A stretch of DNA of 64,000 nt from an uncultured Gemmatimonadales bacterium (GCA_963850905.1 CAWKMU010000004.1:608001-672000); one strand, 5' to 3'. Numbered from the stretch's first letter, positions 730 through 18,908 are shown. Notes: generated by a model from the letters alone, not told the origin. A program made the numbers and translations.

Positions 730-771
730 TGTCAGGCGACCGCCGACAACAAGCAATGGACTGCCCTGACA
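730..771. promoter_or_regulatory. Putative response-regulator operator (19-bp palindrome plus second half-site) upstream of USP
   Basis: TGTCAGG-cgacc-GCCGACA at 730-748 and CCTGACA at 765-771. The same motif recurs at 2550/2572, 7192, 7244, 13117 and 18424. Confidence 0.55.
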
Positions 772-865
772 GCGAAGGCTTTCTTGGTTGACGATCTTCC
801 GTCACGACACCGGCAGGATCGCTTTCCCTCCTCATGACGTCCGTCCGGACGAGGAGAGCACGCAA

Positions 866-1784
866 ATGGCCACCGGATATGACGCCTATCCCAGACCACC
901 GCACGCGACAGCGGCTCCAACGCGCGCGAAGGGCTGGCCGATCGTTGTGGGCACCTGTGGCACCCGGGACTCAAACGGGGCAATCCGTCTCGCGCACCTC
1001 TTGGTGCAACGGAGATGCGAGGGCGGTGTACGTTGTCGGAGTGCTCGACACTGACTGGCAAAGCACGTATGGGACGGGTGAGGGTAGCGAACCCTATGAC
1101 CCCCGGACGGCGGAGGCATTGCTCGCTCGCATCGAGCGTCAGCTCGTCGAGCTCGGGGTACCGGCAGGACACTGGCCGGTCGGCATCGTCGGGGGCGAAC
1201 GCGCTGGCGCGCTGGGGGACATCGCAGGCAACGACCGCACATCGCTCCTTCTGGTTGGCCTGAAGAGTCACATCGCGCTGGCAAGGCTCTGGGGGCGGTC
1301 GACCGCACTCGGTGCAGCGAGCAAGGGCAGGCGCACCGTCCTCGCCGTCGATCCGCTGGCCAGAGCGTTGCCGACGTGCGCGGTGGTGGGCACCACCTTC
1401 GGCCCGGCCAGTGAGAACGCTGCTCGAGCCGCACTCGACTGCCTTGGGTCGTCAGGATCGCTGCACTTGGTGCATGTCCGACCCTTCATGTCCCAAATTG
1501 GAGTGGGGGCGCTATCGACCGACGTGGCGTACGCGCAGGAGATTGCCGACCGCTTGGGGAGCATGGTCTCGGCGCTCGGAGCACCACCTGGCGTCCGGGT
1601 GCGATGTCACGATGTGAGCGGCGACCCAGCGAGCCGCCTGCTCGAACTCGCACAGCAAGAGCACGCCGACCTCATCGCCGTTGGCACGCACGACCGTCCC
1701 GCCTTTGGTGCGTTCCTCGTCGGCACTGTTGCCTCACGTGTGCTTGGGGTCCATCGAACGTCCGTCCTGGTCGCCTCCGCGTGA
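866..1784 (+). CDS. Tandem-domain universal stress protein with a +1 frameshift near 1011
   Basis: RBS GAGGAG and ATG at 866 give PIVVGTCGTRDSNGAIRLAHLLVQR. The frame then switches to DARAVYVVGVLD...GDPASRLLELAQQEHADLIAVGTH...GTVASRVL. Span is 919 bp = 3n+1. Confidence 0.8.
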
Positions 1785-1793
1785 TGGCAGCGT

Positions 1794-1865
1794 ACCGTTC
1801 TTGCGTACGTGGCGTTGACCCAGGCGATCGAACTCCTGCTCATCCGCCGACACTGGATTGCGTAG
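1794..1865 (+). pseudogene. Orphan C-terminal tail resembling an MgtA-type P-type ATPase
   Basis: Translates TVLAYVALTQAIELLLIRRHWIA*, similar to MgtA C-termini (..LLxYVxLTQxVKxWLIRRxWI). No upstream gene body is present. Confidence 0.4.
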
Positions 1866-1870
1866 GAACG

Positions 1871-2323
1871 CTATGATCCCGACGTCGCTTCTCGCCCGGT
1901 GACCTCGTCCAGATGCATGCGAAGCACGAGGAGCCGAAACGGTGCAGGATCGTTCGCCGTGCCCGTGCCGGGTACGAGCTCGCGGAGGAGTTCAACACCA
2001 TGGGCGAAGGAATGTTGATCGATCGGCGGCGAATCCGAGTCGAGGAAATATACGGCGCCGTGCACGACCACACTTCGCCAGTCGAACGTGCCCTTGACCT
2101 CATCGACTTCAAAGGCTGCCCAACAATGATGCGGGAGAATCGCGCTCTTTACTCCGCGCGACGTGCGGCAGTAGATCCAGCCATCGGCGAACACATAGTT
2201 GATCGGCTCAATGTCGACGCGGGCCCCACCGGCGTACGCGATACGCCCCACGTGGTGACGAGCGAGAAGGGCCTCGCATTCGGCACGGGACAAATCTCTG
2301 ATGATCGGTTGAGAGGTCGTCAC
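1871..2323 (-). CDS. Pyridoxamine 5'-phosphate oxidase-like flavin-binding protein
   Basis: LSRAECEALLARHHVGRIAY, AFEVDEV..FDWRSVVVHG and EVTGREA motifs. Likely GTG start at 2323; the ORF track extends to 2428. Confidence 0.85.
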   Translation of the reverse strand: MTTSQPIIRDLSRAECEALLARHHVGRIAYAGGARVDIEPINYVFADGWIYCRTSRGVKSAILPHHCWAAFEVDEVKGTFDWRSVVVHGAVYFLDSDSPPIDQHSFAHGVELLRELVPGTGTANDPAPFRLLVLRMHLDEVTGREATSGS

Positions 2324-2549
2324 AACACCCTGAATGAAGGAGAAAGAATCTAGGATCAGCGGCTTCATAACTATTTTATACCCCCCGGTGCATTCCTTTA
2401 CGTCGATCCACGGTGAGGAATCGTTCACCGCAATGTGATGGTACGCCCTCCCGCATCGACAAAACAGTCGGGGAGGGCCCGTCGCGGCGTCCGGCTTTGC
2501 CTCTCATCAATGCGAGGCGCTCTCGCGAACACGCCTTGAGCGATCGCCG

Positions 2550-2590
2550 CGTCGGGGCGTGCCTGAGTGCATGTCAGGCAACACCTGATC
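2550..2590. promoter_or_regulatory. Tandem operator sites between the divergent PNPOx and USP genes
   Basis: CGTCGGG-gcgtg-CCTGAGT (2550-2568) and TGTCAGG-caaca-CCTGATC (2572-2590), 22 bp apart. Confidence 0.55.
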
Positions 2591-2707
2591 CCTCGATCGA
2601 GGTTCGGCATGCACACTGCACTCAGTACGCGCCGACCTCACGAGGTGGCGACAACGCTGAGACAGCAGGCGGGATTGCCAGCACGGGCCGCGAGAGGAAA
2701 CAACTCG

Positions 2708-3475
2708 TTGAGCAGCGAAGCGCAATCAGAGAGTTCACCAGTTGCGGATCGGCCTGAGGCGCCGGTCGCCCCCGGTTATCATGCAGTGATCGGGGCGATG
2801 GACGGCGACGCGCACGGTCCCGGTGCCCTTCGAGTTGCCCAGGCGCTTGTTTCGCGATTCCGCTCAGAAGCTGTAACTTTGCCGTCGACTGCTGTTCCAT
2901 CGGCTGTGGGGCGAAAGGCCGACGGCTGCGGACATGCGATTGTCGTGCTACCAGCCCCTGATGCGGGGTCCCCTGAGCGACCGACCTACACCGATCGCGC
3001 CTGTCGAGTCGCTGTCTCAACGCGACACCCCGTGCTACTCGTCCCGGACGCCACCGGATGGCCCCCACGCCAATGCGTCGCGGCAATGGACTTTGGCCGA
3101 TCGAGCATCGCAGCCGCGCTGGCCGCATTGGAGTTGCTCGAGGCGCCTGCTGAACTCGCGCTCGTGTTTGTGCATCAAGGGGATGAGGAGGCTCGCCAGG
3201 CGGACTTAGTGCCGCGACACGTGCGCCTGCTGTGCGAAGCCCTAATGCGCACGCTTCTGGCTCCGACGGGGATTACCGTAACGTCGGTGATCTTGAAAGG
3301 CGCCGTGCTCCCCGTGCTGTTGCCCTTTGCTCGACGTTACGGGGCCGACCTCCTATCGCTCGGCCGGCACGGACGATCCTCATCTGCGGGGATCGCCGCG
3401 ACGCCCGTCGGGCCCACGGTGCGTGGATTGCTCCAGGGTGCACCGTGCACCGCGCTGATTTCGAGCGCACCCTGA
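2708..3475 (+). CDS. Universal stress protein (degenerate tandem USP)
   Basis: HPVLLVP, VAAMDFGRSS, ADLLSLGRHG and VGPTVRGLL motifs. The TTG start at 2708 follows GAGAGG; the ORF track starts at 2567. Confidence 0.75.
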   Translation: MSSEAQSESSPVADRPEAPVAPGYHAVIGAMDGDAHGPGALRVAQALVSRFRSEAVTLPSTAVPSAVGRKADGCGHAIVVLPAPDAGSPERPTYTDRACRVAVSTRHPVLLVPDATGWPPRQCVAAMDFGRSSIAAALAALELLEAPAELALVFVHQGDEEARQADLVPRHVRLLCEALMRTLLAPTGITVTSVILKGAVLPVLLPFARRYGADLLSLGRHGRSSSAGIAATPVGPTVRGLLQGAPCTALISSAP

Positions 3476-3705
3476 GGACTGCAGGCTTGACCCACTAGGG
3501 TCTCCATCGCGGTCGCCTTGCGGACTATCGCGGCGGAAGCCTAGAATCCATCAGTGGATGCAGGATCTGGTCGTTGTTTCCTCCGAACGAAGACCCTCGT
3601 TGGCCTCGCGACTGTCAACGGCCGGCAAGGGTGCGGGGCGGGCACCCGACGCACAGCTCGCTGGGGCCGTAGTCACGAGTACCGGCTCGCGATCTTGGTG
3701 CACCC

Positions 3706-6270
3706 ATGGAACCAATGACAACTGACCCGGCCCGCCGATTCAGCGACGAAGGTTCCCGGGAGGCGGCGGAATTGAGCGAGGTGGCGGCGCGCGCCGCGTT
3801 CACGCAGCTGCCGCATCCAATGTACTTGCTATCTCGGGACGGCGTGATTCTCGCGGCGAATCCGGCTGGGCTGCGGTTCGTGGCGAAGGCAGACACGCCA
3901 GTCGTCGGTCAGCGGTTGTGGGACGTCGTGGCGTTGATCGGTCCGCAGGAAGACACGCAATGGTTCCGGCGGGCGATCGACGAGGCGAACGCTGGATCTC
4001 GTACTCCCCTTAGATATGACTTGGATGAGACGGCGCGCGAGCGGACGTCCACGTGGTCGATTCGGCGATTTGAGGGGCCAGAGAGCGGTGGGGTCGCGCT
4101 CATAGCGGAGGCGCGCGACGTCACCGAAGAGCGCCGCGTCGAGATCCAGGGCCGGCTGTTCTCGGATCTCGCACTGGCTCTCGGGCAGACCGACTCTCTC
4201 GAGCTTGCGTTGACCGCAGCACTCCAGACGATGTGCACCGCTGGGGAATGGGCGCTCGGCGAAGCGTGGATGCCGTCGACGCTTGCTGGGGGCGAACAGC
4301 GGTTGACGCGCGCGGCGGTTTGGGCCGTACCCGATCGGCGGCTACAGGGCTTCGTTGCCCAGGGCTCGGGCTTTCGATTCCAAAGAGGAGAAGGGCTGCC
4401 GGGAACGGCCTGGCTGCGACGTGAACCTGTGTGGGCGAACCCGTTGGGCGCCACGCAGGAATTCACGCGTGGTTCTCTGGCTGGCCAAGCAGGGTTGCGC
4501 GCGGCAGTCGCAATCCCGGTGATGGCTCGCGGAGAGGTGGTGGCAGTATTGAGTTGCTATATGGCCGATCTCCGCAATCGCCATACACATCTTGTGCAGG
4601 CCGCCACCGGCGTCGCTGCGCAACTCGGTCCGTTGTTGCTGCAAAAGAAGGCGGAGGAAGCGCATCGCAATGCGGAGGCGCAACTCGCAGGTACGATCGC
4701 TATCGCAACCGACGCGATCATCTCCATCGACGAGACACAGCGAATTACCCTGTTCAACTGGGGGGCCGAGCGCATCTTCGGGTATGCGGCGGACGAAACG
4801 ATCGGGGAGCCGCTCGACATGCTGCTGCCGGAACATCTGCGACGGCACCACGCCACCGACATCGCAGAGTTTGCCAGGTCCGCGCAGACAGCGCGACGCA
4901 TGGGTGAACGGTCAACGATCCTGGGGCGGCGCAAGAACGGCGAGATCTTCCCGGCCGAAGCCTCGATCTCACGCTACATGAGCGGAGGGCAGTGGACCTT
5001 CACCGTGATGTTGCGAGACATCACCGACCGGCGACGCACCGAGGAGGGACTTCGGTTTCTCGCAGAGGTCGGAAGCCTGCTTGGCGATTTGATACAGGAT
5101 CAGACCGTGCTGCAGCGGGTTGCCGAGCGAGCGGTGCCGACGCTGGGTGATGCCTGTGTCATCGATCTGGTTGAGAACGACCTGCCGATCACCGCGGCGG
5201 TCGCCGCACGCGACATTGATATGACCCGCGCGATCCAACGTTTCCGCGATGAGAGGCCGCTGAAGTGGGATGACCGGTCGCCGACAATGGACGCCTTGCG
5301 GACCCGACAGACGCTGCTCCTACCCGAGGGTATTGGAAGCTGGACTGGGCTGGCCGAGCGCCCGGATTATCAACGAGATCTATCGCCGCTTGACGCTGGA
5401 TCGATCCTCGTTGTGCCTCTCGTGGCCCACGACCGGGTAATGGGCGCGCTCAGCCTTGCAATGCAAGCCGGGGGACGCCGCCATGACGATAACTACCGCG
5501 TGCTGGCGGAGGAGGCGGCGGGCCGTATTGCGCTTGCCGTCGACAATGCAATGCTCTATCAGCGGACGCGGCAGGCCGTGGGGGCGCGCGACGAGACGCT
5601 CGCGGTCGTGTCACACGATCTGCGGAATCCGTTGAGCGCGATCAGGATGTACATGAGTGCGCTCCGGGAGGATCCTCCGCCGAGTCCTGAGAGCGTGCGG
5701 GAGCTCGTGGAGCTCGTGCAGGAATCGACGTTGCTCATGTCGCGCATCATCGAAGATCTGCTCGACGTCGCGAGCATCGACAGCGGCCGATTGTCGCTCG
5801 ACCGAAAGGTGCAGCCGCTTCAGCCCTTGCTGGAGCAAATCGAAGACATGTTTCGTGGGGCTGCCGACGAACGGGGGATCGCGCTCGTGCTCGAGCGCAG
5901 TGCGCTCGAACGACTCCCCACGCTGGATGTGGATCGAGACCGCATCGTGCAGGTGCTCGGCAATCTGGTCAACAACGCGCTCAAGTTTACAGAAGCCGGT
6001 GGGATCGTAACCATTAGCGTCGCAACGCGTGGTGAGATGGTCACGGTGGCAGTAACTGACACCGGCGTCGGGATTGCTCCCGACGATCTCGCGCATGTCT
6101 TCGACCGGTTCTGGCACGGTCGCCGCCGAACCAAGATCCGCTCTACCGGGCTGGGTTTGGCGATCGCACGCGGCATCGTGCAGGCACACGGTGGTCGCAT
6201 CTCAGTCGAAAGCACGGTGGGTCGTGGCAGTACGTTTGCCGTCGAGCTGCCGGCCGCCCCAGAGCGCTAG
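3706..6270 (+). CDS. PAS-GAF-PAS-GAF sensor histidine kinase (HisKA/HATPase)
   Basis: H-box SHDLRNPL, N-box NLVNNALKF, G1 DTGVGI and G2 GLGLAI. The second PAS (ITLFNWGAERIFGY...LRRHHATDI...GRRKNGEIFP) resembles FixL-type PAS. No TM segments seen. Confidence 0.92.
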   Translation: MEPMTTDPARRFSDEGSREAAELSEVAARAAFTQLPHPMYLLSRDGVILAANPAGLRFVAKADTPVVGQRLWDVVALIGPQEDTQWFRRAIDEANAGSRTPLRYDLDETARERTSTWSIRRFEGPESGGVALIAEARDVTEERRVEIQGRLFSDLALALGQTDSLELALTAALQTMCTAGEWALGEAWMPSTLAGGEQRLTRAAVWAVPDRRLQGFVAQGSGFRFQRGEGLPGTAWLRREPVWANPLGATQEFTRGSLAGQAGLRAAVAIPVMARGEVVAVLSCYMADLRNRHTHLVQAATGVAAQLGPLLLQKKAEEAHRNAEAQLAGTIAIATDAIISIDETQRITLFNWGAERIFGYAADETIGEPLDMLLPEHLRRHHATDIAEFARSAQTARRMGERSTILGRRKNGEIFPAEASISRYMSGGQWTFTVMLRDITDRRRTEEGLRFLAEVGSLLGDLIQDQTVLQRVAERAVPTLGDACVIDLVENDLPITAAVAARDIDMTRAIQRFRDERPLKWDDRSPTMDALRTRQTLLLPEGIGSWTGLAERPDYQRDLSPLDAGSILVVPLVAHDRVMGALSLAMQAGGRRHDDNYRVLAEEAAGRIALAVDNAMLYQRTRQAVGARDETLAVVSHDLRNPLSAIRMYMSALREDPPPSPESVRELVELVQESTLLMSRIIEDLLDVASIDSGRLSLDRKVQPLQPLLEQIEDMFRGAADERGIALVLERSALERLPTLDVDRDRIVQVLGNLVNNALKFTEAGGIVTISVATRGEMVTVAVTDTGVGIAPDDLAHVFDRFWHGRRRTKIRSTGLGLAIARGIVQAHGGRISVESTVGRGSTFAVELPAAPER

Positions 6271-6281
6271 GACAACAGCCG

Positions 6282-6353
6282 GGGTTCTTTGGGTACTACC
6301 CCGCGCGCAAGGCGGCGCACTTCGATCCCATCGAGGCGTTGAGGTTTGAGTAA
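6282..6353 (+). pseudogene. Orphan C-terminal tail of a MacB/FtsX-family ABC permease
   Basis: Translates GFFGYYPARKAAHFDPIEALRFE*, the characteristic MacB-family C-terminus. It starts about 12 bp after the kinase stop and has no gene body. Confidence 0.7.
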
Positions 6354-6363
6354 GAGGCGGCTA

Positions 6364-6418
6364 GAGACAAACCTCGAGGCCAGCTGGACGCACCGCGGCT
6401 GGCTTCGAGGTTTGTCTC
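6364..6418. terminator. 21-bp inverted repeat between convergent genes
   Basis: GAGACAAACCTCGAGGCCAGC / GCTGGCTTCGAGGTTTGTCTC with one G-U pair and a 13-nt loop. Confidence 0.65.
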
Positions 6419-6445
6419 CAGCGTCCAGCGTCTAGCGTCTAGCCC
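6418..6445. repeat. 7-bp tandem repeat (CYAGCGT) x4
   Basis: ccagcgt ccagcgt ctagcgt ctagccc. Confidence 0.7.
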
Positions 6446-6446
6446 T

Positions 6447-7109
6447 TCACACCTCTGTCAGCAGATTCAACCGCACCGCCAGCTTGACGTAATCGGCCCG
6501 ATGATTGAGCCCAAGCTTCTCGTTGATGCGCTGCTTGTAAGTGTCGACCGTCTTCGGGCTGATGGCGAGCTTGGTCCCGATCTCCGGTGCGGTGAATCCC
6601 TGCGCAGTCAATCGGAGCACATCCTGTTCGCGAGCGCTCAAGCCCTCGAACCGCTCGCGATCGGCCTTGGCGGGGTCGCGCCGCGTCAGTCCATGCACGA
6701 GAACGCGCGACGCGGAGTGCTGCACGTAGACGTCGCCGTGCGCGACGGCTCGGATGGCGTCGACGAGCTCGCGGTCGGCGACGCTCTTCAGGAGGTAGCC
6801 TGCAGCGCCGGCCTGCAGAAGTGGCAGGAGGTGCTCTTCCTCCGTGTGCATCGTGAGGATCAACACCCGCGGCCGCGGTCCCTTGGCGACAATGACTTTC
6901 GTCGCCTGAAGCCCGTCGCCGTCAGGCATGTCCAAGTCCATCACCACCACATCCGGGTCGCAGCGCTCGGCCATCATCACCGCCTGCGTGCCCGTTGCCG
7001 CCTCGCCGACAATGACCATGTCTTTGGCTCCGCCGACCACAGCCTTGAGGCCGCTTCGGACGACGCTGTGATCGTCAGCCAGCATCACTCGAATCACCGC
7101 ATCGTGCAT
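6447..7109 (-). CDS. NarL/FixJ-family response regulator (REC plus LuxR HTH)
   Basis: IRVMLADDH, DVVVMDLDMP and LSAREQDVLRL...ISPKTVDTYK motifs. The ATG at 7109 follows RBS GGAGA. Confidence 0.93.
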   Translation of the reverse strand: MHDAVIRVMLADDHSVVRSGLKAVVGGAKDMVIVGEAATGTQAVMMAERCDPDVVVMDLDMPDGDGLQATKVIVAKGPRPRVLILTMHTEEEHLLPLLQAGAAGYLLKSVADRELVDAIRAVAHGDVYVQHSASRVLVHGLTRRDPAKADRERFEGLSAREQDVLRLTAQGFTAPEIGTKLAISPKTVDTYKQRINEKLGLNHRADYVKLAVRLNLLTEV

Positions 7110-7191
7110 CGTGTCTCCATCGTTGGTTTCACGCTCCCAGAATCTTGTCCTTGGAGGAGGCGGCCTCGTATCGGGGATCACGCTCGGCTTG

Positions 7192-7284
7192 TGTAGGGTA
7201 AGTCCTGACAAGCGACGTGCAAGTGCAGCCAGTGGTTCTGTGACGTCAGGTAGCTCCTTACAAGTAATGACTCCGGGCCTGACG
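7192..7284. promoter_or_regulatory. Operator sites between the divergent response regulator and USP genes
   Basis: TGTAGGG-taagt-CCTGACA (7192-7210), CGTCAGG-tagct-CCTTACA (7244-7262) and half-site CCTGACG (7278-7284). Confidence 0.6.
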
Positions 7285-7361
7285 GCGGTGCGCCTCCCGA
7301 ATTCGCATTTTCAGCTGCCCTGCGATGCAGGCCAATCGAAGTCCCCAAGTCGAGGCGCGCA

Positions 7362-8219
7362 ATGAGCGGAATCCTTCTCGCAAGCGACGGTGGACCAGGC
7401 GCGGACGGTGCGACGCGGGTCGCGGCAGACCTGGCCAAACGGCTGGGCGCTCCGCTCACAGTCCTCGCCGTCTACGAGCCAATGCCAGTAGCAGACTTTG
7501 GCTACGGCGTGGCCTACATCCCAACGACCGACGAAGACAACGCCATCCGAAAAGAGTTGCGCGAGTGTCTCGCGGCGCAACTCGAGCGATGTCGAGTCGA
7601 CGGCTGCGTTCCCGACGTTCGTACCGGCCCCGCGGTCGTGATGATTCCTGCGACTGCCCGCGCGCTCCAGGCCGACTTGATCGTGACGGGACTGGGAGCA
7701 CATGACTTCCTGGATCGCGCTTTCGGTGGTGAGACGGCGCTCCGGCTGGCGCAGACGGCTACGACGCCCATCCTCGCGATCCCCGCGACGGCCACCGCCG
7801 CACCACATCGTGTAATTGTGGCCACGGACGTGAGCGCGACCAGCCGGCGGGCGGCTGCAGTTGTGTCTCAATGGTTGCGCTCGGGTGACGAGCTCCAGCT
7901 CGTGTACGTCGCCGACGAAGGGATCGAGCCCGAGCCGAGACCGACTGCCAAGATTAACTCGGCCATCGCGGAGAAGCTCGCCCAGATGGCGAGCGAGCTA
8001 CATCCCGCGGGCGCCGCAACCGTCAAGACCGTGGGGCTCTCTGGCAACCCCGCTCGCTCATTGCTCTCCTTTGCAAAGGAGATCGACGCTGATCTCATCG
8101 CATTGGGAAGCCATGGTTACGGGCCTATCAAGCGCCTGCTGCTCGGGAGCGTGGCCTCAAAGGTGATCAGATTGGCGACGACTGGCGTGCTGGTCGTGCC
8201 CGCCGGAGCGGTGCAGTAG
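7362..8219 (+). CDS. Tandem-domain universal stress protein
   Basis: ILLASDG, ADLIVTGLG, VIVATDVS and ADLIALGSHGYGPIKRLLLGSVASKV motifs. Confidence 0.93.
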   Translation: MSGILLASDGGPGADGATRVAADLAKRLGAPLTVLAVYEPMPVADFGYGVAYIPTTDEDNAIRKELRECLAAQLERCRVDGCVPDVRTGPAVVMIPATARALQADLIVTGLGAHDFLDRAFGGETALRLAQTATTPILAIPATATAAPHRVIVATDVSATSRRAAAVVSQWLRSGDELQLVYVADEGIEPEPRPTAKINSAIAEKLAQMASELHPAGAATVKTVGLSGNPARSLLSFAKEIDADLIALGSHGYGPIKRLLLGSVASKVIRLATTGVLVVPAGAVQ

Positions 8220-8226
8220 CAGGGCG

Positions 8227-10716: not shown

Positions 10717-11888
10717 ACTGCCCTCCCTGCTCGAGTAATGACCGGAGATGTCGCGCGATCATGAGCTCCTCGTTGGCCGGTACGATCCGGACCGTGACAC
10801 CTGAGTTTATTCCCGAAATGATGGCTGCGTGCTTGGTATTCAGACCCGCATCGAGCGAGACGCCACACCACGACAGGTGCTCACAGACGCGGTCGCGCAC
10901 AACGGCCGCGTGCTCGCCGATTCCGCCGGTGAAGACCAGCGCGTCGATTCCGCCCAGCGCCGTACCAAGGGCGGCAATGGCTTTGGCGACCTGGTAGCAG
11001 AAAATATCGACCGCTTCCGACGCTCGTGCGTCGGTCGGAGAGCGATCAAGCAGAGTCCGCATGTCTCCGGTCGTGCCTGAGAGGCCACGCAACCCGCCTT
11101 CGTCGTTCACGACGCGACTCAGCGCCTCTATGTCGAGTCTTTCGGTTCGAGCGAGGTAAAGCAGCACGCCGGGGTCCAGGTCGCCTGAGCGGGTCGCCAT
11201 GACGATGCCGCCGGTTGGCGTGAACCCCATGGTCGTATCGATGCTTCGGCCGTCACGTATGGCAGCGACGCTTGCTCCACTGCCGAGGTGGGCCGCCACG
11301 AGCCGCAGGGGCAAGGCGCCTGCATGCCCGCAGCTCCTCCACGATGTACTCGTACGACAGGCCGTGAAACCCGAAGCGTACCACTCCTGCATCCGTGAAT
11401 CGGCGGGGCAGCCCGAAGAGCCGTGCACGGTCAGGCAAGGTTGCATGAAACGCCGTGTCAAAGGATGCCGCAGGGCGCACGCTTGGCCATCGCGTGACGA
11501 CCTGTTGCACCGCATCGAGCTCGATCGGCAGATGATCAGGGGCAAGCGGGATGACGCCTCGCAAATCGAGCATCACTGCTGGAGTCAACCACGCCGGGGC
11601 GCGATAGTGGAGCCCACCATGCACGAGTCGATGACCGACCGCCACCAGATGCGGCGCCAACTGCTCCCGCTCGAGCCGAGTGAGCAATTGCTCGATCGCC
11701 GCTCGAGGGGTAGCTGCCTCGGTCGGCTCATCGCGTTGCACATCTGCGGACAAGGAGAGGCTTGCGACCATCCGCTCCTGCGGCTTCGTCACCGCGGCCG
11801 CGAACAGGCGACGCTCCGCACCACCGCCGACGTCGAACACCGCCGATTTCACGCTCGAGGAACCGACGTTCAGGGCGAGGACGAGCAT
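10703..11888 (-). CDS. ackA: Acetate kinase with a +1 frameshift near 11328
   Basis: The N-half (LNVGSSSVK, GHRLVHGG, FDTAFH, FGFHGLSY) and C-half (HLGSGAS, DTTMGFTP, FTGGIGE, NEELMIAR) are in different frames. Removing one G from CGGGCAT restores EELRHAGALP. Span is 1186 bp = 3n+1. Confidence 0.9.
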
Positions 11889-11894
11889 GTAGTG

Positions 11895-11936
11895 GCGTTG
11901 GATGTTGGACGTTGGACGTCGGACGCTGGAGAGTGG
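11895..11936. repeat. 7-bp tandem repeat (ACGTTGG-like) x6 directly upstream of the ackA start
   Basis: gcgttgg atgttgg acgttgg acgtcgg acgctgg agagtgg. Confidence 0.75.
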
Positions 11937-12051
11937 CCGCTAGGGAACGCTAGCGGCCCGGGCCACGTTTCTCCAAGCATGAATCCCAGCGCTTCATCGC
12001 GAAGTGCCGGGTCGCATTCAACTGACAGCGGGCAATAGCGCAAATCAGGTG

Positions 12052-12540
12052 CTAAAGGCTCGACGGGGCCACCACACATCCCGGCGTCCCGCTGTGCGCA
12101 TCCGTGACGCGGACTTCGCTGCGCATTCCGTGCGCGCCCTCCACGCACTCGAGCGCTCGCTCGACAGCCGCGTATTCGGCCGTCGTCGCAACGGTGCCGG
12201 TCAGGATCAACCACCCCTTCTCGACGCGAATGATCACGTCGCGGCCGATCGGATGCTCCCCGGTCGTCAATGCGTCGAGGGCGCGGTGGGCCAGCCCTTC
12301 GTCATCGGTCGCGTTGCCGTGACCGTTAGCGACCTGCAATGTGACGACAACTGCATGGGCGCCAGGCTCGCGTTGCATCGCCCGTTCCGCGGCAACCTTG
12401 TCGTCTGGCGTGTCGACCACGCCACTGAGCGTCACTACGCCGTCCTGCACATTGACGGTGACCTTCGACGCCGCTGGACCAAGTGTGGTCCGCAGCGCGC
12501 CTGACACGGCCGCATGGAGGTTCAAATCTGTTCGCATCAC
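12052..12540 (-). CDS. Dual BON-domain protein
   Basis: Two repeats: VTVNVQDGVVTLSGVVDT and IIRVEKGWLILTGTV. Confidence 0.85.
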   Translation of the reverse strand: MMRTDLNLHAAVSGALRTTLGPAASKVTVNVQDGVVTLSGVVDTPDDKVAAERAMQREPGAHAVVVTLQVANGHGNATDDEGLAHRALDALTTGEHPIGRDVIIRVEKGWLILTGTVATTAEYAAVERALECVEGAHGMRSEVRVTDAHSGTPGCVVAPSSL

Positions 12541-12575
12541 GTGAGTACCCTCACTCTCGAGTCCGAACGTGATTG

Positions 12576-12971
12576 CTACGGCTTGGCCTTACCGTGACCG
12601 ACGGCCCAGACATAGGCCGCGACCTTCTTGACATCATCGTCGCTGATACCACCTGGATGACTGACCATGGCGGTCCCGGACACTCCGTTCGTCACGACCC
12701 CGACGATCGCCTCATATGTGCCACCCTTCGCATCCTTCCAGTCGTGCGCCATCAACGTCGGTGCGATCGGCGTGCCCTCGAGATTCGAGCCGTGACAGGT
12801 GATGCAGCTGCCCTGCCCGTGGAAGACCTTACGTCCGGCATCGATGGCGGCGGGCGAGGCCGAATCAGCCGAAGAGCCGGTCTGCGCGTTCGCGGGTTGC
12901 AGCGCTGCAAGCAAACAAATGGCATTCGCAGCGCAGGTAATGAATGCGAGTCGCAGCATGGCCCTAAGCAT
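12576..12971 (-). CDS. Periplasmic monoheme class I cytochrome c
   Basis: Signal peptide, CITCH heme motif, distal Met (GTAMV) and DVKKVAAYVW. Confidence 0.9.
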   Translation of the reverse strand: MLRAMLRLAFITCAANAICLLAALQPANAQTGSSADSASPAAIDAGRKVFHGQGSCITCHGSNLEGTPIAPTLMAHDWKDAKGGTYEAIVGVVTNGVSGTAMVSHPGGISDDDVKKVAAYVWAVGHGKAKP

Positions 12972-13060
12972 TGGGTCTCCAGGTCAATGGTGAACGGCGA
13001 TCTAGGTGGTACACGGGTCGTTGACGACACGTAAACCTAGGCAGCGCCTCCAAAAACGAG

Positions 13061-13158
13061 CATCAGGGAAAATCCGCCCGGACGTCAGGCAATCCGCCGG
13101 CGACACGCATGGTCGCTGTAGGGGAATCCATTACACGGGCGGCGGCATTTACCGGATT
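13061..13158. promoter_or_regulatory. Operator sites between the divergent cytochrome c and cyc2 genes
   Basis: TGTAGGG-gaatc-CATTACA (13117-13135), half-sites CATCAGG (13061) and CGTCAGG (13083), and a weak site CGGCGGC-attta-CCGGATT (13140-13158). Confidence 0.5.
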
Positions 13159-13322
13159 GAGCAACTCGGCGGCCTGAGGCAGCTTGGCGGCGTAGCACCG
13201 GAATGCTCGCGCCGTTGCGGGCCACAACTCAACTCACGCCGGAGTTTGCGGTGGTTCCTCACAAGTCCAAACTGCGAAGACGGGTTCCGAGTTCCTGGCT
13301 CCCGATGCCGGGAAATACAACT

Positions 13323-14828
13323 ATGAAGAACGAATCAGGCCGAGGACGAGCCGCAGGGGTGCTGCGACGCGCGCTCGCCGCCGCGATCGTGCTGATGTTG
13401 GTGGCCAATGCGGCGGTTGCCGTCGCAAGCGCGCCAAATGCCGGCAACAACGACGATAGAGGTAACGAGGACGCCAGGGGGAAGGAGGACCCCGCGATCG
13501 CCGGTTCCGCGGCTCGTCGAGTGGTGATGCCCTCTGGGATGCACGAGCTGCTCGCCTCGCTCCACAGGAAGGTGCCGGCGTTTTCGCGTCAGACCGGTCT
13601 CGCATGTTCCGCGTGCCACTACCAATTCCCGCAACTGACGCCATTCGGACGCTCGTTCAAGCTGAACGGGTATACGCTGACTGGGCTCAAGCCGATCACT
13701 GAGCCGAATGCGAAAAAGGGGGCGGCACTCTCGCTGCTACCGATCCCGCCAGTCGCCGTCATGCTCATGGCCTCAGGCTCGCACTTGGGTGATGCCCGTC
13801 CGGGTGCGCAGAACGATGTCGCGGAAATGCCGCAGCAATTGAGCCTCTTTCTCGCGGGCTCGCTGACGCCGCATATCGGCGCGTTGCTGCAAGCGACGTA
13901 TTCCGGGAGTGGAGGTTCGTTCGGCATCGACAACAGCGACGTCCGGTACGTGACGCGTGCGCGCCTCGCGGACAAAGATGCGATCTTCGGCCTGACGCTG
14001 CACAACAATCCAACGGTCCAGGACGTGTGGAACACCACACCTGCCTGGGGCTATCCTTTCATTAGCTCCAATGTGCCACCCGGAACGATTGCGGCGCCGG
14101 TCATCAGCGGGCAGCTGGCGCAGCAAGTGCTCGGGTTTGGCGGATACGGACTCTGGAACAACCTCGTCTACGTTGAGGCCACGGCGTACCGAAGCGCACT
14201 GCAGGGCATCTCGCCTGCTGACTCGACCGCGGCCAACACGATCCAAGGAGTGACGCCATATTGGCGTCTCGCTCTCGAGCATCAATTCGGGCCGACGTAC
14301 GGCATGATCGGCGTCTATGGCCTGGTCAGTCATCTCTACCCGACTGGCGTCACGGGGCTGACGAATCGCTTCACCAATGCCGCGGTCGACGCGCAACTCG
14401 AGCATACCTTCGGTGCTGCTGGCGTCGTCATTGGTCGCGCGACCTGGATCAACGAGAGTCAGGTCTTGAGTCCGCTCTTCGCCTCGGGCGCCGCAAGCCA
14501 GGTCGACAACACGCTCAACACAGGGCAGGTCAACGTCAGCGTAGAACCCAACGCGCGCTACGGGGTGACGCTGGGGTACTTCTCCACGACCGGCACGCGC
14601 GATTCACTGCTCTACGCGCCCGCCCCGCTGGTCGGGAGCCGAGTGGGATCACCGCAAACGAACGGCTTCATCGAGGAGCTGGACTACAATCCGTGGCAGA
14701 ACATCCGCATCGGTCTGCAGGGGGTGCAGTACTCGAAGTTCAACGGTGCGGCAACCAACTACGACGGAGCAGAACGAGCGGCAACGGGGAACAACACGGT
14801 CTACGTGTTTGCATGGGTGGCGTTCTGA
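13323..14828 (+). CDS. cyc2: Cyc2-family outer-membrane cytochrome-porin fusion
   Basis: Signal peptide and the Cyc2 signature VPAFSRQTGLACSACHYQFPQLTPFGRSFKLNGY. Also NNPTVQDVWNTTPAWGYP, a beta-rich body and a beta-barrel-type C-terminus VYVFAWVAF. Confidence 0.85.
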   Translation: MKNESGRGRAAGVLRRALAAAIVLMLVANAAVAVASAPNAGNNDDRGNEDARGKEDPAIAGSAARRVVMPSGMHELLASLHRKVPAFSRQTGLACSACHYQFPQLTPFGRSFKLNGYTLTGLKPITEPNAKKGAALSLLPIPPVAVMLMASGSHLGDARPGAQNDVAEMPQQLSLFLAGSLTPHIGALLQATYSGSGGSFGIDNSDVRYVTRARLADKDAIFGLTLHNNPTVQDVWNTTPAWGYPFISSNVPPGTIAAPVISGQLAQQVLGFGGYGLWNNLVYVEATAYRSALQGISPADSTAANTIQGVTPYWRLALEHQFGPTYGMIGVYGLVSHLYPTGVTGLTNRFTNAAVDAQLEHTFGAAGVVIGRATWINESQVLSPLFASGAASQVDNTLNTGQVNVSVEPNARYGVTLGYFSTTGTRDSLLYAPAPLVGSRVGSPQTNGFIEELDYNPWQNIRIGLQGVQYSKFNGAATNYDGAERAATGNNTVYVFAWVAF

Positions 14829-14914
14829 TGAAACCGGAACGGCGGGATCGGGGGCCGCGGGCGCTTTGCGCCCCAGAAAGGAGAAACGCAGAAAGTAGAG
14901 AGGAGACATTGACC

Positions 14915-15661
14915 ATGTCAGAAGAGACACATCAGGCTGTGCATCCGCCGTCGGGATCGTCCGTCCACGAGGCGGCGAGTGAGCGGCGCGCATTTCTTCA
15001 GCGCGTGACCGGCGTGGCGGCCGCGCTGGCCGTTGCGCCGTTGGTGCGTCATCCATTCGCCAGCGTCGGATCGGGGCCGGCTCCCGCGGTGACATTGCCC
15101 ACCGGGCTGCAACCTCGTGCGCCGTGGAGTGACGCCTGGTTGCAGAAGCTGACGGGCAAGCACAAACAGTTCTTCGATACGCTGCAGCCCAATGATGGAT
15201 TCTCGCTGGCGTTCGCGATGTACTTTCTCGATCTCAACCACGAAGCGTACGGGCTCACGGACAATCAGCTCACTGCTGTAGTCGGTCTTCGGCACTTCGC
15301 GATGCCCATGGCGCTTCCGGATGCGCTCTGGGAGCGCTATCGCATCGGTGAGAACATGCAGATCAGCGACCGCACGACCGGCGGGCCCGCAACACGGAAC
15401 CCATTCCTGCACCGAGACGGCGTACCGACCCCTGGGGCGGATGTTACGACGTTGATGCAGCGTGGCGTCCTCTTCACAGTCTGTAACGTCGCGCTCACGA
15501 TCCTGAGTGCGCGGATGGCTAGCGCGGCTGGCGTATCAGGGGAGGCAGCGAAGGCCGAGTGGACGAAGAGCATCGTCCCAGGCATGATCCTGGTGCCGGT
15601 CGGTGTCATGGCGGTGAATCTGGCCCAAGAACGCGGGTGCACCTATTGTTACGGAGGGTGA
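14915..15661 (+). CDS. Tat-exported DsrE-like protein with C-terminal CxxC
   Basis: RBS AGGAG, Tat motif ERRAFL, RGVLFTVCNVAL and a C-terminus AQERGCTYCYGG. The fold assignment is inference. Confidence 0.7.
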   Translation: MSEETHQAVHPPSGSSVHEAASERRAFLQRVTGVAAALAVAPLVRHPFASVGSGPAPAVTLPTGLQPRAPWSDAWLQKLTGKHKQFFDTLQPNDGFSLAFAMYFLDLNHEAYGLTDNQLTAVVGLRHFAMPMALPDALWERYRIGENMQISDRTTGGPATRNPFLHRDGVPTPGADVTTLMQRGVLFTVCNVALTILSARMASAAGVSGEAAKAEWTKSIVPGMILVPVGVMAVNLAQERGCTYCYGG

Positions 15662-15827
15662 TGCGTCCCGCCGCCGGTCGTCCGCAACGCCGAGCGCCAC
15701 TAACGCGCCATGTTCGGCAGCCATACCGTTGCCGCGTGGCTGGGCCAATGTCGTACACGGCCTCGCAGGTCGCGGACGGTCATTTATGCGTACCACCGGA
15801 GGCCCCTGACTAAGGAGAAACTCATGG

Positions 15828-16049
15828 ATGCGGCGACCGAAAGTCGGTTCGCTCGTCCTCATCACCGTATTCGCTGTGGGGCTCGTCATCGGGAGTTCCG
15901 AGCACTTCTTTGTCACGGGTCCTAACAACGTGTTCGACGTGGGCACCGGCGACTGGACGGTCCCGTTCAAAATCAGTGTTGCGATGCTTGTCTTGCTCGA
16001 GGTTGCGGGCCTGTCGGCCGCTGGACGCGTGCTGACCACGCGCTCATGA
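15828..16049 (+). CDS. Small 2-TM membrane protein, possibly the C-terminal remnant of a larger protein
   Basis: Two hydrophobic helices. There is an in-frame stop just upstream and the RBS is better placed for another frame. Confidence 0.35.
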   Translation: MRRPKVGSLVLITVFAVGLVIGSSEHFFVTGPNNVFDVGTGDWTVPFKISVAMLVLLEVAGLSAAGRVLTTRS

Positions 16050-16057
16050 GGTGAAGT

Positions 16058-16708
16058 GTGCCTGTCCGCGTAGCTGCCAGGTCTTTGGTGCCACGGCCTA
16101 GAAAGGTCCTTCAGGAGCGCACGAGCGCAAACAGAACGCGCCAACGGATTCTCGACGCGGCACAGCGCCTGCTCGAGACGGGCGGACTCGCGCGCCTGAC
16201 CACAAAGGAGCTCGCGCACACCGCCGACTGCGCCGAAGGCACGCTGTTCAAGCATTTCCGAAGCAAGGAAGACATCGTCCTCGCGGTCGTGATGGAGAAC
16301 GCTCCGCGATTCCGCGATGCCGTGTCGCAATCACGTCGCACCAGCCGGCCCGTCGAGAAAAACCTCGCGGAGATCGCACTCGCGTGCATTCGATTTTCCG
16401 AGAAGCTCATTCCCCTCGGTGCGTCCCTGCTCGGCGACGCAGCGCTGCTCCAGCGCCGCCGGAGGCTCGAGCCCGGGCGCGGGCCGAAGGAGGCGTTCCA
16501 GCTCATTGCCGATTACGTAGCGCAAGAGCAGGCTGCCGGCCGTATCGACGTGAGGGCGGAGCCGGCAAGCGTCGCGCTGCTTCTGTTCGGACCATGCTTT
16601 CAGCGGGTCTTCATTCGTCAGGTCGTGGGCGAGAACCCCGCACCCACAAACGATCGGCAGTTCATCGCCGGCATCGTAAGTACGATCATGCAGGGACTCA
16701 AGCCGTGA
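16058..16708 (+). CDS. TetR/AcrR-family regulator
   Basis: TRQRILDAA...LTTKELAHTADCAEGTLFKHFRSKEDI helix-turn-helix. Confidence 0.9.
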   Translation: MPVRVAARSLVPRPRKVLQERTSANRTRQRILDAAQRLLETGGLARLTTKELAHTADCAEGTLFKHFRSKEDIVLAVVMENAPRFRDAVSQSRRTSRPVEKNLAEIALACIRFSEKLIPLGASLLGDAALLQRRRRLEPGRGPKEAFQLIADYVAQEQAAGRIDVRAEPASVALLLFGPCFQRVFIRQVVGENPAPTNDRQFIAGIVSTIMQGLKP

Positions 16709-16730
16709 CCAGCCCCGCTGACGAGCAACT

Positions 16731-17357
16731 ATGATACGGGATCACGACTGCGCTCCGATGACACGTGTGCGGCTCACCCGCCTTGCAAGTCGTACGATAA
16801 CGCTTGCGTTCGTCGCGATGGGCTGCACCAGAAGTCCGTCGACGTCGACCGGGTCGCGTCCATCGGTCGTGGTGCTCGTCCGCCACGGGGAGAAGGCGAC
16901 GTCTGCCGGTGACGATCCCTCGCTCAGCGACGCTGGCCATGCGCGCGCTGCCGCCCTCGCCGACGCGCTTGGCGACGCGCACGTCACGCACGTGATCACG
17001 ACGCAGTTTCGCCGGACGCAGGAAACTGCGGCGCCGTTGGCCGAACGGCTGGGACTCCGCCCGACCGTGATACCGATCGATCTTAGCGACATCAGGCGCT
17101 ATGTGGCTGCCGTCAGCGATTCCGTGCGGCGCAGCGGTGGCGTGACGCTCATTGTCGGACACCAGAACACGGTACCTGCCGTTATCCGCGCATTGGGTGG
17201 CCCTGCTACCCCGGAGATCTGCGCCGAGGATTATGGCGATTTGTATATCCTGGTTCTCGGCGTACGCCCCGGTCCATCACTCATGCACGAGACGTTCGGA
17301 GTCCCGCACCCAGCACACAGCGCGACGTGCGCCGCGGCGCCCACAACACCGCACTGA
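16731..17357 (+). CDS. Histidine phosphatase (SixA/PGM family), probably a lipoprotein
   Basis: LVRHGEK, RTQETA and IVGHQNT motifs; lipobox-like AMGC. Confidence 0.85.
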   Translation: MIRDHDCAPMTRVRLTRLASRTITLAFVAMGCTRSPSTSTGSRPSVVVLVRHGEKATSAGDDPSLSDAGHARAAALADALGDAHVTHVITTQFRRTQETAAPLAERLGLRPTVIPIDLSDIRRYVAAVSDSVRRSGGVTLIVGHQNTVPAVIRALGGPATPEICAEDYGDLYILVLGVRPGPSLMHETFGVPHPAHSATCAAAPTTPH

Positions 17358-17457
17358 GCCTCGCTTTCTTCCGCCGCCATCACCAGGCTCGCACTGAGAA
17401 GCGACGTGAGGTGTCCTTCTCGGTCAGAGATGATTCCTATTCGCGATACCGGGCGGC

Positions 17458-18189
17458 TCACCCGCCACCTCTCGCGATCGCCATATACAGGCCAAGCCCG
17501 ATCAGCAGGAGCGCGATCACGCGTCGGAACATGCGTTGGGGGAGATGCCCTAGCAGGCGGGTGCCGAGCGAGGTGCCGATCACCACGCCGAGCGTCGCTG
17601 CGAGGAGCAGCGGCCACACGTGGGCGATGGCGCGCGCTTCCGTGGCCAGATACACCGGCAACCGCGCCACATCGACAAAAAGCCCGATCGCCGTGGCGGT
17701 CGCGACGAACGACTCCTTTGGCACGTCGAAGCCGAGCATCGCCGCCGAGCGTATACCACCTTGATTGCCGACCAGACCTCCGAACGTCCCGGAGAGCAAT
17801 CCCGCGAACCATGCTGTTCGCCGCCCCCAGTGAACTCGCTCGACCCACCCCGTGAGCTGTGATGTACCAGCGAAGATGAGCAAGCAACCAAAGACAACGG
17901 CCAGCCCGCGGCTCGAGATCCGTGTGTGCAGGAGTGCGCCGGCGAGCCCGCCGACCGCGCTCGCGATGCCGAATCCGAGGAGGACGCGTCGATCGACATG
18001 GCGTCGCAGCAGCCAGAATCGTTGCGCGGTACCGACGAAATGCGGGAATGCGACCGCGGCTACCGCGAGCTTCGTCCCGGTTGTGAGCGCCAGAACCGGG
18101 GTGAGCAGGCTCCCAATGCCGAAGCCAGTGACGGCAGCAATGCCGCCAGCAACAATCGCAGTCAGCGCGAGCAGTGCGCCGAATAGCAC
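17458..18189 (-). CDS. TauE/SafE sulfite-exporter-family membrane protein
   Basis: About 8 TM segments; VTGFGIGSLLTP and GGLVGNQGGIRS repeats. Confidence 0.85.
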   Translation of the reverse strand: MLFGALLALTAIVAGGIAAVTGFGIGSLLTPVLALTTGTKLAVAAVAFPHFVGTAQRFWLLRRHVDRRVLLGFGIASAVGGLAGALLHTRISSRGLAVVFGCLLIFAGTSQLTGWVERVHWGRRTAWFAGLLSGTFGGLVGNQGGIRSAAMLGFDVPKESFVATATAIGLFVDVARLPVYLATEARAIAHVWPLLLAATLGVVIGTSLGTRLLGHLPQRMFRRVIALLLIGLGLYMAIARGGG

Positions 18190-18399
18190 GCGCGGGCGAT
18201 CCTACCGAGGGCGAGTGCCCGTCGCGTGCTCCCGGGATGCGGAGCGGATCCCGGGCGCGCGACCTGGACGCGGGGGCTCGACGAAGAGCTCGGCAACCAC
18301 GTGTTGCACAGTTCAATAATATATCGACCTTCCGCTATCGGCTTTGGGAGGCAATCGCCGATTTCGTGGACTGGGCGCGCGGTCGTCGTGGCCAACGTC

Positions 18400-18465
18400 C
18401 GTCGGGGAAACCACGCACAGGCCTGTCAAGCGATCGCCGACGGCAGGGTGGTACATCCGCCGACG
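18400..18465. promoter_or_regulatory. Operator sites upstream of the hypothetical gene at 18561
   Basis: TGTCAAG-cgatc-GCCGACG (18424-18442), with half-sites CGTCGGG (18400) and GCCGACG (18459-18465). Confidence 0.45.
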
Positions 18466-18560
18466 CTGCCCCCGCACCCACTCCTCTAGGTTGTACTCGT
18501 GTGGGATGGATCCTTGGGCGCCATCACGATAGCGGCGTCGGCATGTGAGAGGAGGCCCCG

Positions 18561-18908
18561 ATGTCACCGGTCACCCTGCAGCAGACCTTGCCGCTGTATC
18601 AAGCCCGCTGCTCACTGGTGCGCGCCATCAGGCGCGCGCACATTGGGCGCGGATACGACGCATTCCTGCTCCGAGTCGCCGTGTCGGAATTCACTGAGAG
18701 GCTCCGCCAGGCTCGGATCCCACTGAATCGTACGCTCACCGCGCTCACCGATGCGATCGATGACGGTCTGCTCAGTGGCGGAGGAGAAGCGCTGCGCGCG
18801 ACCATGCTCGATCGTGCAACGTCGTGGGCGACGGAGGTATACGTCGATTGCGCGTCTCGGGCGCGATGCAATACGTGGCCCGCGGGGGTTGGCCTGCTAG
18901 CATCCTAG
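18561..18908 (+). CDS. Hypothetical helical protein
   Basis: Strong RBS GAGGAGG and a protein-like 115-aa ORF with no recognised family. Confidence 0.5.
   Translation: MSPVTLQQTLPLYQARCSLVRAIRRAHIGRGYDAFLLRVAVSEFTERLRQARIPLNRTLTALTDAIDDGLLSGGGEALRATMLDRATSWATEVYVDCASRARCNTWPAGVGLLAS

Follow-up and report, generated by a model that had tools for sequence, protein, structure and literature searches.

A tandem 19-bp operator and a UvrY-like response regulator outline a probable low-oxygen switch in Gemmatimonadota

Two-component systems that read oxygen through heme are known from mycobacteria, where DosS and DosT are heme-GAF sensors, and from rhizobia, where the cbb3 oxidase is the output of FixL-FixJ(-FixK). 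The DosR boxes of tgs1 were placed at –63.5 and –42.5, 3 bp apart, with helical phase required (PMC3177182). Staphylococcal NreBC is described as an O2-sensing two-component system that replaces FNR, with an Fe-S cluster in NreB and a GC-rich palindrome before respiratory genes (PMC8139620). The UvrY box is given as TGTAAG-N6-CTTACA (PMC4682653), and the Burkholderia lxa locus is presented as a patchy low-oxygen island of universal stress proteins (USPs), an alpha-crystallin protein and metabolic enzymes behind an Anr/Fnr-type motif, TGA-N6-TCA (PMC3721108). Here we analysed 64,000 nucleotides of an uncultured Gemmatimonadales bacterium (GCA_963850905.1, CAWKMU010000004.1:608001-672000; this whole stretch is the window), in which a 19-bp palindrome recurs around a NarL/LuxR-family response regulator (Table 1). 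A sequence-only reading of this DNA had proposed a DosR-like regulon coupling a dormancy programme to outer-membrane electron transfer. We find that the palindrome is almost certainly a real, functional operator, conserved far beyond the window, and that on balance it probably serves a phylum-specific low-oxygen switch in which a UvrY-like regulator would be phosphorylated by a heme-PAS kinase as oxygen falls.

The locus shares with DosR/DevR a NarL-family regulator, a predicted heme-based gas sensor, USP and flavoprotein cargo, and strong and weak boxes 3 bp apart in phase, here at about –65 and –43 as judged from –10-like hexamers. The box, however, is 19 bp long with YGTMRGG half-sites and a period of 22 bp, whereas DosR uses 18 bp with GGGACT; the recognition helix differs, the sensor is a heme-PAS HisKA kinase rather than a heme-GAF protein, and the core targets are cbb3 oxidase, nosZ and cyc2 genes. 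The tandem phased layout and the NarL-family regulator stand from the DosR analogy, but the regulator is not a DosR orthologue and the operator is not a DosR box. DevR orthology was rejected: DevR gave 114 bits, no better than VraR (123) or NarL (114). Dev boxes with at most two mismatches (GGGACT half-sites) number none in the first 19.8 kb of the window, and were found in 2/30 upstream regions of ccoN, the cbb3 oxidase gene, and 0/30 of nosZ. The likeness to FixL-FixJ lies in the cbb3 output and in the sensor, a HisKA kinase whose predicted heme-PAS domain has the proximal His. The two proteins were also rejected as orthologues of FixL and FixJ, with scores far below the cut-offs (kinase 161 of 850 bits, regulator 62.5 of 255), and a FixK/Fnr relay would be superfluous here, since ccoN and nosZ have the box immediately upstream.

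UvrY/SirA/GacA is similar on the DNA-binding side. UvrY and MctR are the nearest NCBIfam matches of the regulator, both below cut-off (UvrY 155 of 280 bits), and the TGTAAG half-site resembles TGTMRG. The spacer is one base longer here (19 vs 18 bp), the targets are protein genes rather than Csr/Rsm RNAs, and the loci encode no BarA-type hybrid kinase. The 18-bp UvrY box was absent from all 60 ccoN and nosZ upstream regions and from positions 1-19.8 kb of the window. NreBC, compared by its description, resembles this system as an oxygen-sensing pair in place of FNR with a palindrome before respiratory genes, but its Fe-S cluster contrasts with the heme-PAS domain (PMC8139620). A one-base-shorter variant of our box, tried for this comparison, occurred in 0/30 ccoN and 3/30 nosZ upstream regions, without enrichment before ccoN. 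The lxa locus is alike as a low-oxygen island with similar cargo, but its motif is not enriched here (PMC3721108). The parts are therefore of known kinds. The box, the pairing of regulator and regulon, and the direct control of ccoN, nosZ and cyc2 appear to be new, as no description of them was found in the open-access literature searched.

All seven 19-mers of the sequence-only reading (730, 2550, 2572, 7192, 7244, 13117 and 18424) are present in the window. Its own pattern, with at most two mismatches, gave 30 matches against a shuffle mean of 17.5 and maximum of 29, but this test is circular, and we therefore used an independent matrix. Up to 20 kb was fetched around each orthologue of the regulator, and palindromic expectation maximization (EM) was run on 139 intergenic stretches from 16 such loci in other genera, the window and its genus being excluded. 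EM returned YGTMRGGNAWTNCCYKACR / nGTcgGGgantcCCcgACn as the box pattern, which came out on top when the width was set to 17 or 19 and took second place at 21; palindromy was imposed, and a diffuse pattern ranked first at widths 16, 18, 20, 21 and 22. Counts of exact dyads in these 16 loci gave no clear answer. The box was thus recovered from other genera with no contribution from the window. The resulting matrix (about 42 sites, 13 bits; consensus YGTMRGG-NAWTN-CCYKACR) confirms the palindrome at the seven positions, six of them scoring 12 to 20 bits (rounded) and 2550 being a weak partner site, and adds sites that had been missed at 2466, 2488, 13061, 13083 and 18400. The placement proposed for the box, upstream of USPs, the PNPOx gene, the regulator itself, cytochrome c and cyc2, and a hypothetical gene, is borne out in the window. 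Further candidate sites lie at 19647 (12.5 bits, within a gene end), 24415 and 63007.

The box lies mainly between genes. In 80 regulator loci, some of which belong to training genomes, 97 of the 102 sites of at least 13 bits are intergenic, against 15% intergenic DNA; together with coding controls of 0-1/30, this disposes of the concern that the motif is equally frequent in coding sequence. Within the source genome (G000), we counted operon-leading genes with a site of at least 12 bits within 400 bp: 6/15 in window positions 1-19.8 kb, 8/27 on contig C2 and 13/27 on contig C5, compared with 6/2021 on C3 (3.65 Mb) and 5/380 and 1/54 on the rest of C4. The genome-wide total at 14 bits shows no excess (27 sites; column-permuted matrices averaged 28.5), but intergenic sites do, narrowly (13; permuted mean 3.4, maximum 12). 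The enrichment that had been suggested as a genome-wide check is therefore local, at the start of the window and on C2 and C5, and intergenic, and does not extend to the whole-genome total.

Conservation at orthologous promoters adds support. We took the 30 best-matching loci per gene in Gemmatimonadaceae, a major family of soil bacteria. A site of at least 12 bits lies within 400 bp of ccoN in 28/30 loci, and of the two misses one has a site farther upstream and the other is genome G161 (96% complete), which has ccoN but neither a regulator match nor the box. Clade II nosZ has the box upstream in 22/30 loci; coding controls gave 0/30 for both genes. For cyc2 units, a site was present within 450 bp in 11/30 loci (null 0.9%) and over 0.5-1.75 kb upstream in 22/30, against 1/30 controls; these 30 loci include the window itself and genome G004, and one of the 22 positives (L091) comes from G016, which also contributes a few sites to the spacing set described below. 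The unpublished genomes G016, G067 and G165 are counted in the family tallies, none is in the training set, and no conclusion rests on them. The genes themselves are patchy, ccoN matching in 43/151 genomes, nosZ in 123/251 and cyc2 in 51/251 family genomes. Upstream DNA of hemW-like genes (0/14) and of aa3 coxA (0/27) had no site, coxA being a weak control because it is operon-internal; 4, 4 and 1 loci were left out or skipped for coxA, hemW-like and hemN, respectively.

The earlier claim of a second site 22-23 bp away holds in part: partners exist, but most are degenerate (half-sites at 753, 7169 and 7266, low scores at 13140 and 18447). Among 212 distinct sites of at least 15 bits, partners of at least 4 bits peak at distances of 22, 23, 44 and 45 bp (34, 14, 16 and 6), compared with 0-5 at other distances, and lie on the gene side in 23 cases against 3 away (of 130), which upholds the tandem arrangement even though most partners are weak. 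TAnnnT hexamers occur at offsets of 18-22, 42-44 and 64-66 bp after the box 57 times toward the gene and 6 times away, in peak windows picked from the same data. Of nine promoters tried in the window, eight show a hexamer of the form [TC]AnnnT, with offsets of 21-22, 43-44 or 65, and only that of TauE has none. If the hexamer starts at –12, the box centres would fall near –43, –65 and –87, much as in DosR promoters. Spacing and hexamer offsets together support a tandem, helically phased operator.

The regulator at 6447-7109 very likely reads the box. Its orthologues occur in 205/251 Gemmatimonadaceae genomes with a near-invariant recognition helix, and all 80 records returned for its relatives are named Gemmatimonadaceae or Gemmatimonadota, in agreement with the origin of the DNA. 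The strict pattern is found in 116/205 genomes with the regulator and 9/46 without (reversed-pattern control, 15/205 and 4/46; all hand counts), with a Fisher P of 6e-6 that is overstated because the genomes are kin. Outside the family, 26/162 phylum genomes have matches, and in the 16 such loci examined the helix had lost DTY/ETY in four, which lack the box, whereas the other twelve each have at least one box, two of them weak. This co-occurrence, the tracking of the helix and the UvrY-like half-site all suggest that the sequence-only reading picked the right protein. The TetR protein at 16058-16708 was rejected as a reader, being seen only in the island of this genus.

Three observations touch on the regulator loci. 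In nine loci of other families (L263, L268-L273, L275 and L276) the helix is mostly DTYRSRIME and the box is shifted toward TGTRGGG (10 sites), a possible protein-DNA co-change. A small multicopper protein, present in 30/80 loci, often opens the operon of kinase and regulator, with the box immediately in front of it (L037:7641-8753, L046:7693-8775); some of these proteins are NirK by TIGR02376, most are not. In the genus g63 loci L259-L261, neither kinase is encoded near the regulator, and the heme-PAS kinase is found elsewhere, beside a P-type ATPase in 2/3 genomes.

The likely sensor escaped the sequence-only reading; it is the kinase encoded at 3706-6270, with a heme-PAS domain of FixL type. 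Its second PAS domain (residues about 324-446) has FixL as best PDB match (E 9e-17), followed by DosP, and His382 aligns with the FixL heme ligand and is kept in 14/14 relatives covering the position. In G006 and G034, the kinase gene is next to that of the regulator and points the same way. The low-oxygen theme of the earlier reading agrees with the target genes, cbb3 oxidase and clade II nosZ, and low oxygen is in our view the likely main signal, with the heme-PAS kinase probably the direct phosphate donor of the regulator. The single O2-shift data set that we found in the family is from G. phototrophica: at 10% versus 21% O2, ccoN rises by 1.8-2.3 log2 (PMC11406998, Table S2), and one USP (2.0-2.4 log2), hemN and nitronate monooxygenase are also reported up (PMC11406998).

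A mechanism consistent with these data starts as oxygen falls, when deoxy-heme would free the kinase and lead to phosphorylation of the regulator. Phosphorylated dimers would first occupy the distal, strong box, centred near –87 or –65, and from there extend to the proximal, degenerate one at about –43, which adjoins the –35 region. The promoters activated in this way would be of sigma70 type with weak –10 elements, and the response would be amplified as the regulator acts on its own gene. Most relatives also encode a membrane HAMP-HisKA_3 protein alongside, which would provide a second input or serve as phosphatase. We would expect a micro-oxic respiration kit as output. In G000 it may comprise Cyc2 and a monoheme cytochrome c, most likely passing outside electrons to a high-affinity oxidase; xfp-ackA would be a local addition to the regulon.

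Several observations weigh against this model. The family loci are best matches and kin, so their counts are not independent, and one nosZ and one ccoN locus were among the matrix training loci. Eight of the 30 nosZ promoters have no 12-bit site, five of them in one genus, and hemN, although induced in G. phototrophica, has the box in 1/11 loci. At 10% O2, 4/5 USPs, 3/3 PNPOx-family genes and 13/13 response-regulator rows stay flat among the rows seen of that data set (PMC11406998). No ccoN or nosZ match is present in G000 (82% complete). Three genus g63 genomes have the regulator with neither kinase nor intergenic box within 10 kb. Heme-PAS matches also occur in 3/7 regulator-negative genomes checked (G161 and, weaker, G194 and G196), and 43/80 loci (22/34 full-length loci) encode the heme-PAS kinase no farther than 6 kb from the regulator, while 73/80 encode a membrane HAMP-HisKA_3 protein there.

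This last count speaks for the alternative that we rate highest, in which regulator and box are the same, the HAMP-HisKA_3 kinase supplies the input (quinone redox, heme, NO or copper) and the heme-PAS kinase is merely a regulon member. HisKA_3 kinases are the usual partners of NarL-type regulators, the phosphorylated His is kept in 67/72 of these proteins, and many targets are copper or heme enzymes. We nevertheless consider this unlikely. The HisKA_3 protein was not found in G000, G004, G006, G007, G026 and G082, all of which keep the regulator, and the heme-PAS kinase is the one that sits beside the regulator, in the same orientation, in two genomes. In addition, the DxxxQ Gln, which has a phosphatase role in HisKA_3 proteins, is invariant (72/72), whereas the His is replaced in 5/72, a pattern that fits a phosphatase or second input.

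That another transcription factor, of the Crp/Fnr family or unseen, binds the box and that the response regulator is a mere target is quite improbable. Such a factor would account for the strict matches in 9/46 genomes without a detected regulator; Crp-family genes are present in 5/5 relatives checked and in G000, and the comparable lxa regulon has an Anr/Fnr-like box (PMC3721108). But FNR boxes of the TTGA-N6-TCAA type, CRP boxes and lxa-type boxes before ccoN or nosZ number 0-2/30, no more than controls, and the two Crp-family proteins of G000 have no N-terminal Cys cluster of the Fe-S kind. Moreover, the symmetry of the box is odd, its half-site is UvrY-like, and its occurrence follows the regulator helix. 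As a separate observation, the cytochrome c-cyc2 unit of L082 (G094) has no box, and the gene divergent from it resembles Crp on inspection; this genome gave no match to the regulator, which may have been swapped.

We give slightly less credence still to a DosR-type dormancy programme, in which shutdown and substrate-level ATP (xfp-ackA, PFK, PPDK, USPs) would prevail over respiratory switching. In this genus, boxes of the island do precede USPs, BON, Hsp20, xfp-ackA, PFK, PPDK and FtsH, a cargo comparable to that of DosR and lxa. Yet xfp and ackA lie near the regulator in 5/80 loci only, so the xfp-ackA route that had been linked to a dormancy programme is better seen as lineage-specific cargo; the PNPOx gene is near the regulator in 30/80. 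The most constant targets are ccoN and nosZ, and G. phototrophica grows better at 10% O2 while cbb3 is induced, as reported in PMC11406998. Family-wide, the targets are respiratory (cbb3 oxidase, clade II nosZ, non-aa3 oxidase, copper oxidases), and this stable core makes "low-oxygen switch" a better label than "dormancy programme". That the sites are chance matches in GC-rich DNA or copies of a dispersed repeat, a view for which only the unremarkable genome-wide total at 14 bits speaks, has a negligible probability given the independent recovery, gene-specific placement and 22-bp phasing of the box, and the true dispersed repeat of G000 (6360-6449, many copies on C3) differs from it in sequence.

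The low-oxygen switch very probably includes cyc2, as the sequence-only reading had supposed; of all the component claims, only the reality of the box itself seems firmer to us. The evidence is the box found at 22 of the 30 family cyc2 units. The protein at 13323-14828 carries the Cyc2 motif PXFAR[QK][TY] before CXXCH and PXL after it (PAFSRQT...CSACH...PQL), with one Ala-to-Ser change; Ser replaces Ala in PXFAR in most family members, and the FARQT form occurs in L095 and L097. It thus agrees with the published description of Cyc2 cytochrome-porins, PxF[AS]RQT-xxx-CxxCH-xxx-PxL in a protein of >365 aa with a 16-strand OprO/P-like barrel (bioRxiv 10.1101/228056, Keffer et al.), but differs in the Ser of PXFAR, in its heterotroph host lineage and in an apparent O2 switch over the gene. 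At 501 aa it is predicted to form a fused porin barrel of about 16 long strands with a small helical domain (30-sequence model, pLDDT 64; a single-sequence AlphaFold model gave pLDDT 31), and Foldseek matches to this model are porins, with OprP/OprO best (TM 0.54). Sequence searches of PDB, Pfam and NCBIfam did not recognize Cyc2, and the Pfam and NCBIfam searches showed no Cyc2 model. In 20/30 loci, cyc2 is accompanied at a distance of up to about 1.5 kb by a homologue of the cytochrome c encoded at 12576-12971, and 19/51 cyc2 genomes also carry nosZ (hand count).

By analogy, our best guess is that electrons flow inward through Cyc2 to a high-affinity oxidase. Fe(II) is the best-known Cyc2 donor, although its oxidation by Cyc2 here seems doubtful to us. 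Cyc2 homologues of Gemmatimonadota are noted elsewhere, with no direction of electron flow given in the passage concerned (PMC11316326), and the function of homologues in non-iron-oxidisers is called uncertain by the Cyc2 authors (bioRxiv 10.1101/228056). The protein encoded directly after cyc2 (14915-15661) is conserved, being also present in G004 and G006, and may point to a sulfur substrate.

A further, tentative extension is a one-step oxygen switch, peculiar to Gemmatimonadota, that needs no FNR or FixK: through a single box phased at 22 bp, a FixL-type heme kinase, restrained by a membrane HisKA_3 phosphatase, and a UvrY-type regulator would directly control the genes for Cyc2, cbb3 oxidase and clade II N2O reductase. 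Co-regulation of Cyc2, its cytochrome c and a high-affinity oxidase or NosZ might then let common soil heterotrophs draw Fe(II) electrons at oxic-anoxic boundaries, some spending them on N2O. Gemmatimonadota are reported to be widespread and often to have atypical (clade II) nosZ (PMC11316326), which, with nosZ in about half of the family genomes, makes them a candidate sink for this greenhouse gas. No description of a regulator of Gemmatimonadota nosZ was found in the open-access literature; if the switch is true, it would explain how N2O removal is turned on without the usual FNR switch. It would also give Cyc2 homologues in non-iron-oxidisers a regulatory context, as proteins apparently made for low oxygen alongside a partner cytochrome, and with the matrix, low-oxygen genes can be predicted throughout the phylum, hypothetical proteins included. 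For cultured strains the box supplies a named protein, site and promoter layout, for instance on plasmid 1 of Gemmatirosa kalamazoonensis KBS708. That plasmid locus (L313, NZ_CP007129.1:515001-565000) has a HisKA_3-regulator pair with boxes before it, and boxes also precede a YceI-to-nos gene run and USP genes.

Table 1. Genes and operator sites of the window (positions counted from its first nucleotide; bits are matrix scores, in the order of the sites)
Feature	Coordinates	Strand	Basis and remarks
Primary box 730-748 and half-site 753-771, upstream of USP1	730..771		15.4 bits; –10-like CAGGAT 814-819, 65 bp after box
USP1, universal stress protein	834..1784	+	PF00582
PNPOx-like flavoprotein	1871..2428	-	PF12900 from residue 47; translation probably starts near 2326
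Box pair 2466-2484 and 2488-2506, facing PNPOx	2466..2506		7.5, 11.9 bits, 22 bp apart; –10-like TACCAT 2443-2438 (minus strand), offsets 22, 44
Box pair 2550-2568 and 2572-2590, facing USP2	2550..2590		6.0, 13.1 bits, 22 bp apart; –10-like CACACT 2612-2617
USP2 open frame	2567..3475	+	PF00582; true start probably after about 2624, downstream of the promoter, judging from the –10-like hexamer
PAS-GAF-PAS-GAF-HisKA-HATPase kinase, soluble	3706..6270	+	Pfam; second PAS FixL-type heme-PAS; His382, phospho-His637
NarL/LuxR-family response regulator	6447..7109	-	PF00072 and PF00196; UvrY-like recognition helix ISPKTVDTYKQRI; D58, T86, K108 present
Box 7192-7210 and half-site 7169-7187, upstream of the regulator (putative autoregulation)	7169..7210		16.5 bits; –10-like CAAGAT 7147-7142; kept in G004
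Box 7244-7262 and half-site 7266-7284, upstream of USP3	7244..7284		13.2 bits; –10-like CATTTT 7306-7311
USP3, tandem-domain USP	7362..8219	+	PF00582 twice
Phosphoketolase xfp	8227..10716	-	NF003619 above cut-off
Acetate kinase ackA, two frames	10703..11888	-	One extra base near 11323 relative to G004
Two-domain BON protein	12052..12540	-	PF04972
Monoheme class I cytochrome c (CITCH)	12576..12971	-	PF13442; likely Cyc2 partner; head of cytochrome c-BON-ackA-xfp unit
Weak box pair 13061-13079 and 13083-13101, facing cytochrome c	13061..13101		8.4, 1.4 bits; –10-like TAGGTT 13039-13034, offsets 21, 43
Strongest box 13117-13135 and partner 13140-13158, facing cyc2	13117..13158		20.2, 4.5 bits; –10-like CAGCTT 13180-13185; kept in G004
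Cyc2-type fused cytochrome-porin	13323..14828	+	PAFSRQT-GLA-CSACH-YQF-PQL, ~16 predicted beta strands, C-terminal Phe
Uncharacterised protein, RR-xFL export-like motif	14915..15661	+	Weak DsrE/TetH-like lead; possibly co-transcribed with cyc2
Box 18424-18442 and partner 18447-18465, facing 115-aa gene; further site 18400-18418	18400..18465		11.7, 6.9, 8.2 bits; –10-like TAGGTT 18487-18492
115-aa hypothetical protein	18561..18908	+	No Pfam or NCBIfam match; nearest clusters Gemmatimonadota hypotheticals, atlas scores 0.85-0.86 (lead)

Parts of the window recur, at 80-97% identity, on contigs C2 and C5. As these contigs also correspond to the longer island of G004, they are probably a second allele, and the window looks like a deleted haplotype of the longer C2/C5 island. 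Site 18424 is identical on C2. The box-led genes of C2 and C5 include those for PFK, PPDK, FtsH, a non-aa3 oxidase, a NiFe hydrogenase and ABC exporters. The ackA gene is whole in G004 and split by one base in the window, but we doubt that it is a true pseudogene: each of two near-identical short-read contigs over ackA has one base less, the base at 11323 is missing from other strains, and frames are also split elsewhere in the assembly (8/105 gene matches to G004, with aa3 coxA in pieces as well), all of which points to a probable assembly error.

Farther along the window, 27832-33653 encodes Hsp20 (split frame), Band 7, MreB and groES-groEL, with no box found before these genes; the segment is possibly an outer part of the island, and second mreB and groEL copies on C3 have 80-82% identity to its genes. 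Finally, palindromic intergenic REP-like repeats at 6360-6449 and 14837-14915, many copies of which occur on C3, are unrelated to the box.

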